Source: an uncultured Gammaproteobacteria bacterium (GTDB lineage Bacteria > Patescibacteriota > Microgenomatia > UBA10105 > UBA927). From it: a stretch of 49,658 nucleotides of DNA. The notes beneath the pieces were generated by a model. It saw nothing but the letters and a program-made list of their open reading frames with translations, ran no database searches and had not been told where the DNA came from. Positions 14,703 through 29,546 of this stretch are shown here, piece after piece. Each line of letters starts with the position of its first letter. The stretch's first letter is position 1. The position numbers were made by a program, and so were the translations under genes. The stretch spans positions 1 to 49,658 of the forward strand of contig CAYIWI010000002.1 of the NCBI GenBank assembly GCA_964367065.1, in the 5' to 3' direction.

Positions 14703-14726
14703 AAATAAAAACGCGCGGTCATGCGC

Positions 14727-14732
14727 TATAAT
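14727..14732 (+). promoter_or_regulatory. -10 box TATAAT located 6 nt upstream of the rsmI ATG (leaderless-type arrangement)
   Basis: Read directly from the sequence: gcgcTATAATgattgtATG. Confidence 0.5.
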
Positions 14733-14738
14733 GATTGT

Positions 14739-15536
14739 ATGGGAACACTGTTCATTGTGTCAACACCGATCGGGAACCTGGAAGATATCACCATCCGTGC
14801 CATAAAAACGCTGTTTTCCGTGGATATCATCGCCTGCGAGGATACGCGAAGAACAGGACTATTGTTAAATGAATTAAAGAAACGATACGGTAGTCTTTAT
14901 TCTTCGAGCGAGGAGTCTTCGACGAGTCGAGAAGTTCATGCCGAAAGTTCTCGACTTCGCTCGAACAATAAGTCAGAACCAAGGCTGCTAAGCTACTATG
15001 ATCAAATTGAGCAATCAAAAACTCCTGAACTCATCGAACTACTTGAACAGGGAAAAGAAGTCGCATTGGTCAGTGACGCCGGAACGCCTCTTGTCTCCGA
15101 CCCGGGCTACAAACTTGTCCGAGAAGCAATCAGACGAGGTATTACAGTGGTAAGCATCCCCGGCCCGACTGCCGCAATAGCCGCGCTTACCGCAAGCGGA
15201 CTTCCGACAGACAAATTTTTATTCCTCGGCTACCCGCCGGAAAAATCATCGCATCGCATCAGACTCTTTGAATCTCTTTCAGAAGTGTTCAAAAGACCTC
15301 GCCTTGTCGAAGCAAGGCGAGGTCTTGATAAATCCCCGACGTTTATCTTCTACTGCGCGCCACATAAACTTGTACAAACGCTTGAAGACATGAAGCAAAC
15401 ACTTGGCGACATCGATATTGTCATCGCCCGGGAACTGACCAAGGTTCACGAGGAAGTATGGCGAGGAAGCATTTCAGAGGCGATTGTTGAGTTTCAGTTA
15501 CCTAAAGGCGAGATAGTCCTGCTTTTTTGCTTATAA
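14739..15536 (+). CDS. rsmI: 16S rRNA (cytidine1402-2'-O)-methyltransferase RsmI, carrying two in-frame palindromic insertions
   Basis: TP-methylase fold motifs are present (LFIVSTPIGNLEDIT.RA...ACEDTRRTG; SDAGTPLVSDPG; ARELTK.HEE). The start at ATG 14739 (MGTLFIV) matches canonical N-termini. Confidence 0.9.
   Translation: MGTLFIVSTPIGNLEDITIRAIKTLFSVDIIACEDTRRTGLLLNELKKRYGSLYSSSEESSTSREVHAESSRLRSNNKSEPRLLSYYDQIEQSKTPELIELLEQGKEVALVSDAGTPLVSDPGYKLVREAIRRGITVVSIPGPTAAIAALTASGLPTDKFLFLGYPPEKSSHRIRLFESLSEVFKRPRLVEARRGLDKSPTFIFYCAPHKLVQTLEDMKQTLGDIDIVIARELTKVHEEVWRGSISEAIVEFQLPKGEIVLLFCL
14900..14971 (+). repeat. 72-nt palindromic repeat element, copy 1, in frame within rsmI (encodes SSSEESSTSREVHAESSRLRSNNK)
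   Basis: It is ~89% identical to the reverse complement of 29183..29253. Internal inverted repeats are TTCGAGCGA/TCGCTCGAA (outer) and GTCGAGAA/TTCTCGAC (inner). Confidence 0.85.
15294..15325 (+). repeat. perfect 13-bp-stem, 6-nt-loop palindrome in frame within rsmI (encodes KRPRLVEARRGL)
   Basis: Read directly from the sequence: AGACCTCGCCTTG tcgaag CAAGGCGAGGTCT. Confidence 0.9.
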
Positions 15537-15860: not shown

Positions 15861-17619
<1,759 letters not shown>

Positions 17620-28283: not shown

Positions 28284-29546
28284 TTATTCACCTCCTTTGT
28301 AATACTTCTTCCCTTTTATTCTATCAGGTAACAGACTCTCTGCGCTATACGGTTGGTAGCCGCGGCCGTAACCTAATCCTTTCATAAGCTTCGTCGGTGC
28401 ATTGCGAATCGGTAAGGGGATAGGAAGGTTTCCCAACTGTTTCACGTCTTCAAGCGCGCGAAAATACGCATCATAGGCGCTCCGGTCTTTTTTAGCCAGG
28501 GAAAGGTAAACAACACCGTGGGCAAGATTTTCCTGACACTCGGGATAGCCGATCTTGTTACACGCATCAAATACCGCATCGGCAACCACGAGTGCCGTGG
28601 GCTGTGCCATGCCGATGTCTTCGGAGGCAAAGACTACCATGCGCCGTGCAATAAACAGCGGATCTTCGCCTGCCGCAACCATGCGCGCCAAATAATAGAG
28701 TGCCGCATCCACGTCACTGGCCCGCATGGATTTGATGAAGGCGGAAATGGTGTTGTAGTGCTCATCGCCGACCCGGTCGTACTGAAGCATTTTACGCTGT
28801 GCCGCTTCCTCGATATGTGCAGTCGTAAACTTGACAGGGTCTGACCCTGTCAAACGCGCGGCAATTTCAAGGATGGTCAGAAGTGCCCGGGCGTCACCAT
28901 TGGAAACTTCCAGTAAAAACCCGCGCGCATCGTCTGAAATAGATCGTTTGAGGTATGCTAGTCCTCGATCAATAAGTGTACTCAATTCCTTTTCGGTAAG
29001 CGGATTGAGTACAAAAACTCTGCATCGTGAGAGGAGAGGAGAAATGACTTCAAAAGAGGGGTTTTCGGTCGTTGCGCCGATAAAAATAATCGTTCCTTTT
29101 TCCACATGGGGCAATAAGGCATCTTGCTGTGCTTTATTAAACCGGTGGATCTCATCAAGAAAAAATATCGTCCGTTGCGGTATTATTGTTCGAGCTTGTC
29201 GAGAACTTCCTTGATGAACTTCTCGACTCGTCAAAGACTCCTCGCTCGAAGAAGAGAGAGTATTGAGCCTATCTTTTGCCTCTTTGACAACTCTCCGTAC
29301 ATCGGCGAGCGTAGCGCTGACGGCAGAATGCGACTCAAAGTGAGCATTCGTAAGCGTTGCCAAAAGGTGGGCAAGGGTCGTTTTGCCGCACCCGGGAGGT
29401 CCCCAAAATATCATGGAAGGCAAAAAACCGGAAGTGAGGAATTTTCTGATAATGCCGGATTCACCAACAAGATGGGCTTGCCCGATGAGCTCATCAAGCG
29501 TTTGAGGCCTGAGGATTTCTGCAAGCGGCCGGCTCTCGGTCATCAT
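28284..29546 (-). CDS. rarA: replication-associated recombination protein A (AAA+ ATPase RarA/MgsA) carrying an in-frame palindromic insertion
   Basis: Walker A GPPGCGKTT, Walker B FFLDEIHRFNK.QQD and the C-terminal MgsA domain (HYNTISAFIKSMRASD..AALYYLARM) are present. Confidence 0.92.
   Translation of the reverse strand: MMTESRPLAEILRPQTLDELIGQAHLVGESGIIRKFLTSGFLPSMIFWGPPGCGKTTLAHLLATLTNAHFESHSAVSATLADVRRVVKEAKDRLNTLSSSSEESLTSREVHQGSSRQARTIIPQRTIFFLDEIHRFNKAQQDALLPHVEKGTIIFIGATTENPSFEVISPLLSRCRVFVLNPLTEKELSTLIDRGLAYLKRSISDDARGFLLEVSNGDARALLTILEIAARLTGSDPVKFTTAHIEEAAQRKMLQYDRVGDEHYNTISAFIKSMRASDVDAALYYLARMVAAGEDPLFIARRMVVFASEDIGMAQPTALVVADAVFDACNKIGYPECQENLAHGVVYLSLAKKDRSAYDAYFRALEDVKQLGNLPIPLPIRNAPTKLMKGLGYGRGYQPYSAESLLPDRIKGKKYYKGGE
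29183..29253 (-). repeat. 71-nt palindromic repeat element, copy 2, in frame within rarA (encodes SSSEESLTSREVHQGSSRQARTII)
   Basis: Its reverse complement aligns with 14900..14971. The differences cluster in the inner loop, and there is a 1-nt indel near the 3' end. It lies in the same orientation relative to the host reading frame as copy 1. Confidence 0.85.

Follow-up and report, generated by a model that had tools for sequence, protein, structure and literature searches.

The DNA analysed here, called the window below, is a stretch of 49,658 nucleotides (contig CAYIWI010000002.1 of assembly GCA_964367065.1) from the genome of an ultra-small groundwater bacterium of the Patescibacteria, and this analysis concerns a short DNA hairpin that lies in frame within its rsmI gene, together with the family of similar hairpins to which it belongs. 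The genome under study is designated G000 (791,540 bases in 76 contigs, 93% complete); in other labels, C denotes contigs, G genomes of the same taxonomic family, L public or metagenome contigs and P homologues of RsmI. The rsmI open reading frame (ORF; 14721-15536, forward strand) has 271 codons and scores 103 bits against Pfam TP_methylase. Its public homologues carry the name 16S rRNA (cytidine1402-2'-O)-methyltransferase, and the best solved relative of its product is E. coli RsmI (PDB 5HW4, E = 1e-46).

Positions 15294-15325 read AGACCTCGCCTTG-tcgaag-CAAGGCGAGGTCT, which an earlier note on this DNA had described as a perfect in-frame hairpin with a 13-bp stem. The sequence is as described there, although the stem is actually 14 bp, gaining a further pair with one base per side, and is formed by AAGACCTCGCCTTG (15293-15306) and CAAGGCGAGGTCTT (15313-15326). 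The whole hairpin, at 15293-15326, has 100% complementarity in this 14-bp stem and a 6-nt loop. Folded as single-stranded DNA it forms 15 pairs, one of them a T-G pair, at -17.4 kcal/mol (z = -7.6), and none of 200 shuffled sequences was equally stable. The hairpin consists of two inverted copies of a 15-nt unit with the general form CAAGG-N5-CCTTG and the consensus CAAGG-CGAGG-CCTTG. We describe it in the vocabulary of repetitive extragenic palindromes (REPs), their inverted doublets (REPINs) and REP-associated tyrosine transposases (RAYTs), the last of which were reportedly treated by Nunvar in 2010. The features of the locus are as follows:

14721-15536, forward strand: host gene rsmI, its reading frame unbroken across the hairpin
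14897-14971, in frame in rsmI: a 72-nt palindromic element, with copies in rarA and upstream of aspS
15288-15290, forward strand: TTC tag, two bases 5' of the doublet, present in orthologous empty sites too
15291-15326, forward strand: twelve codons, K191-L202, KRPRLVEARRGL, with one codon (TCT or CCT) in their place in empty-site orthologues
15293-15326, forward strand: inverted doublet (REPIN-like), perfect 14-bp stem and 6-nt loop, its stems recurring at other loci
15292-15306, reverse strand: left REP-type unit AAAGACCTCGCCTTG, reverse complement CAAGGCGAGGTCTTT, compared with the units flanking RAYT-like genes in L256, L240 and L245
15307-15312, forward strand: spacer or loop tcgaag, variable among copies in sequence and length (3-15 nt)
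15313-15327, forward strand: right REP-type unit CAAGGCGAGGTCTTG, with a C-to-T change here paired with a G-to-A change in the left arm

Since the C-to-T change in the right unit is matched by the G-to-A change in the left arm, it is compensated. A search of Rfam with the hairpin gave no match, and a terminator check of it found no terminator-like site and no T-run after the hairpin; on both grounds a terminator or a known RNA is ruled out.

That the hairpin is an insertion is clear from a comparison of 87 database RsmI homologues, in which those carrying the hairpin (filled sites) were found by protein similarity and not by palindromy. The RsmI of 28 relatives, the same-genus genome included, also lacks the hairpin. 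Two empty sites among the database homologues read GAA GTG TTC TCT GAT AAA (P0006) and GAA ATG TTC CCT GAT AAA (P0011), whereas the filled site of the window reads GAA GTG TTC AAA AGA ... GGT CTT GAT AAA, so that with flanks alike a single codon stands in place of twelve, a net difference of 33 nt. Four other homologues (P0004, P0016, P0009 and P0029) carry a hairpin at the identical junction; these have 62-75% DNA identity with the rsmI of the window, and the empty-site orthologues are 25-28% diverged. In P0004 the stem is a perfect 15-bp one (AAGGCCTCGCCTTGC/GCAAGGCGAGGCCTT), as it is in P0016 (AAGACCACCTCTTGC/GCAAGAGGTGGTCTT), where four changes per arm are all compensated; the P0009 hairpin is imperfect, with 13 Watson-Crick pairs, one wobble and one mismatch, and that of P0029 has decayed. 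No target-site duplication was seen between filled and empty sites, at a resolution short of a single base. The alignment of RsmI orthologues, which the earlier note had proposed, thus yields both filled and empty sites that differ by 33 nt, and its view of the hairpin as an insertion relative to orthologues is borne out by relatives that lack it.

In the protein, the hairpin is translated in frame as K191-L202, KRPRLVEARRGL, and an alignment to 5HW4 has a 12-residue gap precisely at this segment, in agreement with the 11-12 extra residues that had been noticed relative to E. coli RsmI. The insert contributes 11 residues at a helix-strand junction in the C-terminal domain. We built an AlphaFold2 model from an alignment of 88 sequences (mean predicted local distance difference test score, pLDDT, 82.7), in which residues 191-202 fall between helix 176-191 and the strand at 207-212. 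Residues 191-200 have a mean pLDDT of 66, compared with 94-96 in the blocks before. This model is consistent with a tolerated surface linker at the insert site, and the copy in rsmI is most likely carried as a passenger that the protein tolerates, rather than as an adaptation.

Long perfect hairpins are far more frequent in this genome than chance allows. Its 791 kb contain 13 whose stems reach 14 bp or more, and lowering the limit to 13 bp raises the number to 18, compared with none of either class in 20 genomes simulated by a first-order Markov model; for stems of at least 12 bp, 26 were observed against a simulated mean of 0.4. Because the long stems are absent from all 20 simulated genomes, a chance origin is excluded, and the genome-wide scan against controls suggested earlier comes out as a marked excess. 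When the hairpins of the genome were clustered, they fell into several families. The rsmI hairpin groups with two other G000 hairpins, with which it has the core CTCGCCTTG/CAAGGCGAG in common, and the pattern of its family is AAGGCCTCGCCTTG..CAAGGCGAGGCCTT. In total, G000 holds three doublets and one single unit with the rsmI-type core, those outside rsmI being the following:

C43:4316-4349: doublet in frame in aspS, encoding the peptide GSRLVSKQGETP
C58:4262-4294: intergenic doublet, following a stop codon and preceding the start of a wecB-like gene
C43:2288: single unit that shares the core

The family is also dispersed beyond G000. The doublet is present in five of the 81 genomes of the same taxonomic family (four of the 80 others), in 12 copies altogether, whereas reversed-pattern controls gave none and about 0.01 are expected by chance. 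Among them is the same-genus genome G001 (JACREP01), which has about 83% DNA identity to G000 and several copies. Units number 7 in G000, 15 in G001, 7 in G004, 7 in G009, 5 in G017 and 3 in G003, compared with 0-1 for the reversed-pattern controls. In a scan of public metagenome contigs the exact doublet (28 specified bases) was found in 35 contigs, and seven doublets of the variant designated D1 lie in frame in long ORFs with confirmed Pfam domains. A scan of 185,579 genomes with the exact core, which has 18 specified bases, returned at least 120 loci; as about 140 matches are expected by chance, it says little on distribution, but it did bring up G001 with its several copies.

Copies have a stem of 14-15 bp, a spacer of 3-15 nt and a total length of 33-36 nt (canonically 15+3+15 = 33 nt), and whichever frame is read, the conserved arms are free of stop codons. 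In-frame host genes across the family are rsmI, aspS, copA, recJ and glycosyltransferase genes. The encoded peptides differ (GSRLVSKQGETP in aspS, QGLALRTQGEAL in a glycosyltransferase and RPPLAGSQEVV in copA) and other reading frames are used, and since copies read in other frames give unrelated peptides, there is no selection on a common peptide.

Some further copies were recorded. Two different GT4 glycosyltransferases (L254 and L255) carry a doublet in the same loop, just before a conserved YFLFVG/YYLSVG strand, and the copA-like ATPase (L258 versus G069:C102) has variant D1 or D2 according to lineage, in the same loop at different junctions. The same 14-17-bp stem also occurs on contigs from bins of unrelated phyla, namely L083 (labelled Dehalococcoidales), L033 and L109 (labelled Gammaproteobacteria). 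L109 resembles G000 contig C3 over several kb, with 67-76% DNA identity, and may for this reason be a misbinned Patescibacteria contig.

The doublet family is physically associated with a RAYT-like Y1/HUH tyrosine transposase gene. Genes with the Pfam domain Y1_Tnp (about 225-260 codons) are found in 23 of 25 relatives, with two in G000. On six of the 35 metagenome contigs such a gene lies 5-40 nt from the exact doublet, and all six genes belong to the same subfamily (phmmer E about 1e-86 to 1e-92). In L256 one doublet precedes the ATG by about 35 nt and another follows the stop codon after 5 nt; in L240 and L245 a doublet lies 5' of the transposase gene and a single unit 3' of it. The L256 protein scores 50 bits on Pfam Y1_Tnp, for which the cut-off is 23, and proteins of the subfamily score 26-50 bits, all above the cut-off. 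The transposase gene of G004 has GACAGGGTCTCGCCTTGTC, the exact left arm of the aspS copy, on both sides.

In G000 itself, the gene at C19:8115-8819 is flanked on both sides by a sister palindrome, AAAGGTTAAACCTTT, which has the same AAGG-N5-CCTT design as the rsmI unit and is the commonest such unit in the genome (13 of 27). This gene is one of five in its subfamily, with 44-53% mutual identity, and all five of the genes examined are flanked by their own unit of the form [C/A]A[A/G]GG-N5-CC[C/T]T[G/T]. The C19-subfamily protein has the motifs HFH (NHFHLL) and YIHRNP, and the only NCBIfam match of the G000 proteins is to the REP-associated tyrosine transposase family (REP_Tyr_transpos, NF047646). 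As a transposase gene with flanking repeats is what defines REP/REPIN-RAYT systems (PMC3116915, PMC3733652), doublets flanking a transposase gene are their signature.

Two other arrangements of transposase genes were seen. The second Y1_Tnp gene of G000 (C37:4661-5374), which belongs to a different subfamily, has on its flanks a 23-nt inverted repeat, CCATGTTAA(C/A)TACGTTCAAACAT, and not short hairpins, an arrangement that resembles the terminal inverted repeat (TIR)-flanked tyrosine transposases ('TIRYT') of Di Nocera et al. At G004:C5:6865-6876 (L174), a third GGTCTCGCCTTG unit lies within a RAYT-like coding sequence, which GGTCTCGCCTTG also flanks.

The two arms of the element were compared. 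In 12 copies 95% of cells are paired and seven of the 15 pairs change on both sides; compensated cells number 24, compared with 8.9 +/- 2.1 in shuffles, of which none of 500 was as high. Copies found by pattern are paired by construction in the 9-bp core, whereas the five rsmI copies are free of this bias. It is base pairing that is conserved, and not peptide sequence. The stem variant of P0016 is found again, its stems unchanged, in the copA-like ATPase gene of G069, where it is in frame, and at an intergenic site of G060, and because it recurs at other loci it represents a dispersed sub-family and not a product of local drift. In an RsmI tree built without the insert columns (206 columns, with 7 well-supported branches and repeated gain indistinguishable from repeated loss), filled sites are scattered among empty ones and two well-supported clades mix both states. 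The five rsmI copies may represent one old insertion kept complementary or overwritten, or repeated insertion at one TTC site. Unrelated hairpins occupy the same RsmI loop in P0035 (-55 kcal/mol) and P0071.

The sequence TTC is found 0-4 nt 5' of the doublet, before AAG(G/A), on 21 of 34 genome flanks, compared with 7.4% of control AAGR sites of G000 (binomial P = 7e-16), and on 36 of 72 flanks of the metagenome copies. The opposite flank often reads NN-GAAA. The empty rsmI sites already contain both TTC and GATAAA, and because TTC pre-exists there we infer that it may reflect a preferred target rather than belong to the mobile DNA.

The aspS copy has a history of its own. Its hairpin is confined to G000 and G001 and is missing from 28 other relatives, several of which have other inserts at this place. 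Hairpin, loop and flanks (C43:4307-4356) form a 50-nt run of 100% identity between the G000 and G001 species, in genomes that are 82.3% identical overall, and the only longer run in the 2.4-kb alignment is one of 56 nt at the catalytic motif.

Given this evidence, we consider it very probable that the rsmI hairpin is a copy of a miniature REP/REPIN-type element composed of two inverted 15-nt units and a short spacer. Its membership of a family, the association of that family with a transposase gene, its insertion relative to empty sites, the co-variation of its arms and its TTC flank are all matters of observation, and from them we infer that the doublet has transposed. By analogy with characterised RAYT and IS200/IS605 (insertion sequence) enzymes, we would expect the transposase to attach to the unit when it is folded in single-stranded DNA and to cleave beside a short tag, probably TTC; the doublet would then be moved or copied to a new TTC-containing site without target duplication. 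In tiny, gene-dense genomes many such insertions would be expected to fall in genes, and the copies that survive would be those that keep the frame, by virtue of a length of 33-36 nt and stop-free arms, in permissive surface loops.

Several observations weigh against this interpretation. The match to NF047646 scores 39-44 bits, below the cut-off of 80, and a comparison of the RAYT-like protein with solved structures returned only the TnpA protein of ISDra2, at an insignificant E = 0.46, because of which no structural assignment is made. No RAYT-like gene flanked by the exact rsmI unit was found in G000 (93% complete, 76 contigs), and for this reason the rsmI copy may be an immobile fossil there. 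The number of copies is very low, with 1-8 doublets per family-carrying genome, and the doublet flanks lack a GTAG or CGTC tag, the classical GTAG being the one missed. The DNA of the orthologues is so diverged that the exact boundaries of the insertion cannot be fixed to the base. In addition, the 50-nt identity at aspS would not be expected for a purely neutral passenger.

This last point bears on an alternative that is compatible with a REP-type origin, namely that the hairpin is a selected nucleic-acid structure with a domesticated function. It might, for instance, be bound by the Y1 protein or some other factor, modulate the stability or translation of mRNA, or serve as a signal in replication or repair. 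The perfect identity of the aspS run would fit such a function, as would the rsmI stems, which stay perfect through compensated changes in genes only 67-73% identical, and for classical REPs both an influence on the stability of mRNA and the binding of proteins have been reported (PMC3733652). Against it, the hairpin has no Rfam match and no terminator-type T-run, many orthologues do without it and show no visible consequence, loops, spacer lengths and reading frames vary among copies, and decayed copies such as that of P0029 exist; moreover, recent re-insertion or conversion from a current master copy could also account for perfect stems. We regard a selected structure as unlikely. An adaptive change in the protein, in which 11 extra, mostly basic residues (KRPRLVEARRGL) were selected, for example for contact with rRNA, and the palindrome is incidental, might be suggested by an arginine-rich peptide in an enzyme that binds 16S rRNA and by retention of the insert in several lineages. 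However, the same DNA occurs in other genes and other frames with unrelated peptides, the closest orthologues have no insert, the model has low confidence at the insert and it is pairing that is conserved rather than peptide. As the peptides differ between copies, we reject this explanation as highly improbable.

The remaining explanations concern how the palindrome could have arisen without a mobile element. Template switching is a known route to creating and perfecting inverted repeats, and a de novo palindrome formed by a quasi-palindrome template switch or a strand-switch replication error, which the earlier note had offered as a possible origin, could account for arms that are exactly complementary. 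Its product is expected to be unique and locally templated, but the same 14-15-bp stems recur at unrelated loci, in four other genomes of the family and in 35 metagenome contigs, some of them adjoining a transposase gene, and the empty-site orthologues contain no partial template of an arm. Because a local copying error cannot yield one sequence at different loci, we have abandoned this origin, the chance of which we consider very slight; template switches might nonetheless contribute to preserving the match between the arms. An artefact of assembly or amplification is scarcely credible: although the metagenome-assembled genome is fragmented (76 contigs) and palindromes can arise as chimeras, the insert preserves the reading frame, the family recurs in many independent data sets, and three independent assemblies from other runs (L182, L184 and L186) have the hairpin at the identical rsmI junction, for which reason an artefact is rejected.

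The same genome contains other palindromes, of which the 72-nt element at 14897-14971 is closest at hand. It resembles the rsmI hairpin in being located in the same gene and genome, in frame, hairpin-forming and dispersed, and differs in sequence and length. A Smith-Waterman comparison of the two scored 11 against 7.5 +/- 1.4 for shuffled sequences (P about 0.03), a similarity only marginal, and the two families are kept apart. The proposal that the rsmI hairpin belongs to a hairpin-element family therefore stands as regards a dispersed family, in which it groups with two other hairpins of the genome, but a demonstrable link to the 72-nt element does not. At a place shortly upstream of the start codon of aspS (C43:4081-4208 versus L035), G000 has the 72-nt element and G001 a 33-nt doublet, and one site is thus occupied by two different hairpin elements.

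Further palindromes were noticed. A 44-nt quasi-palindrome at 16291-16334, of the GAAGGATGCGATCC..GGATCGCATCCTTC type (family A), lies in frame in an acetyl-CoA synthetase gene, and its family A sisters, with perfect stems of 17-20 bp, are in frame in genes for NAD(P)H-hydrate dehydratase, RecG, a MiaB-like enzyme and a methyltransferase (C16, C21, C9 and C24). Overall, sister families are found in frame in true housekeeping genes, among them those for NAD(P)H-hydrate dehydratase, RecG, a MiaB-like radical-SAM enzyme, a methyltransferase, an M50 peptidase, PheT and acs. At 28831-28853 in rarA, TTGACAGGGTC-T-GACCCTGTCAA is an 11-bp perfect palindrome that encodes LTGSDPV; the TGSDPV peptide and its DNA recur in doublets on C17 and C33 and in the RecJ gene of metagenome contig L250, and the outer part of the palindrome matches the unit flanking the G004 transposase gene. 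RarA therefore seems to hold two different palindromic inserts. Four long palindromes (C1:21377-21406, C14:13063-13100, C5:25342-25379 and C36:1618-1665) are centred on the octamer GCGGCCGC, of which G000 has 27 copies compared with about 12 expected from length and composition; two of the four share ATTGACAAC..AACGC arms, which suggests operator-like sites.

A broader hypothesis may be framed around these elements, although we hold it to be rather improbable: the REP-type doublets of Patescibacteria and their Y1 transposases would form a long-lived system that prefers coding sequence and some copies of which are functional. There is a similarly small chance that the loops of RsmI, AspRS, CopA and glycosyltransferases have been hit repeatedly, with the current master variant (D1 or D2) overwriting residents at the identical junction, and it is with no greater assurance that we suggest purifying selection on some copies, for example the aspS hairpin, as nucleic-acid elements. 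If this were true, it would amount to a transposase-driven diversification of loops with structured DNA or RNA signals embedded in ORFs.

For the miniature REP/REPIN-type element that we favour, the consequences are more immediate. It would be a miniature version of such systems in a Patescibacteria genome of roughly 0.8 Mb that leaves hardly any room between genes, where elements persist in frame within permissive loops of essential genes, and it would account for part of the many short lineage-specific protein inserts in this radiation. Annotation calls for caution accordingly, since such inserts can be mobile DNA and not adaptations. The 15-nt hairpin and its 230-residue enzyme also make a compact, testable pair for DNA recognition by HUH transposases, and the co-varying arms together with the cross-species conservation of one copy raise the question of domestication for some copies.

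With regard to known systems, miniature inverted-repeat transposable elements are 70-300 bp long, with the TIRs of a parent insertion sequence and a target-site duplication, whereas the element described here is 33 nt and no duplication was seen. It has more in common with the IS200/IS605 group (IS608, ISDra2 and hairpin-bearing non-autonomous derivatives), namely a Y1/HUH enzyme, a DNA hairpin as recognition element, a short conserved sequence 5' of the hairpin as a possible target or cleavage site and the lack of a target duplication. It differs from this group in that there are no distinct left and right ends around the gene, the doublet itself being the putative mobile unit, and in that similarity to solved TnpA proteins is insignificant (E = 0.46). 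The Rickettsia palindromic elements (RPE; Ogata et al. 2000) are, in the accounts of PMC3733652 and PMC10969869, in-frame palindromic inserts in housekeeping genes, and the likeness extends to functional host genes, a reduced genome and tolerated surface loops. RPEs are about 100-150 bp, CGTC-tagged and found in Rickettsia only, with no known dedicated transposase, whereas our element measures 33-36 nt, bears a TTC tag and is associated with a Y1 transposase gene.

The closest resemblance is to REP/REPIN-RAYT systems, for which our sources are Bertels & Rainey 2011 (PMC3116915) and Di Nocera 2013 (PMC3733652). Common to both are a short palindromic unit at dispersed, non-homologous loci, inverted doublets with a variable spacer that fold to a hairpin, a gene for a single-domain Y1/HUH transposase with these units on its flanks (on six metagenome contigs and in G004), compensatory changes in the arms, and the coexistence in one genome of sister families with transposase genes of their own. 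Compensatory changes in REPIN arms were already known (PMC3116915), and intragenic REPs, even different REPs at about one site in a gene, have been described in Proteobacteria (PMC3733652). The unit here is only 15 nt and the doublet 33-36 nt, compared with approx. 20-40 nt for REPs and 70-110 nt for their doublets; the tag is TTC and not GTAG or CGTC; a genome contains 1-8 doublets and not tens to hundreds of REPs; a large share is in frame in housekeeping genes, whereas REPs are extragenic; the transposase is below the NCBIfam equivalog cut-off; and the host is of a Patescibacteria (Gottesmanbacteria) lineage. Our literature search found no paper that treats the Candidate Phyla Radiation together with RAYT or REPIN. 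The usual view of REP/REPIN-RAYT systems is that they reside between the genes of large proteobacterial genomes, and on the reading favoured here the element in rsmI would carry this familiar type of selfish DNA into a new phylum and into coding sequence.

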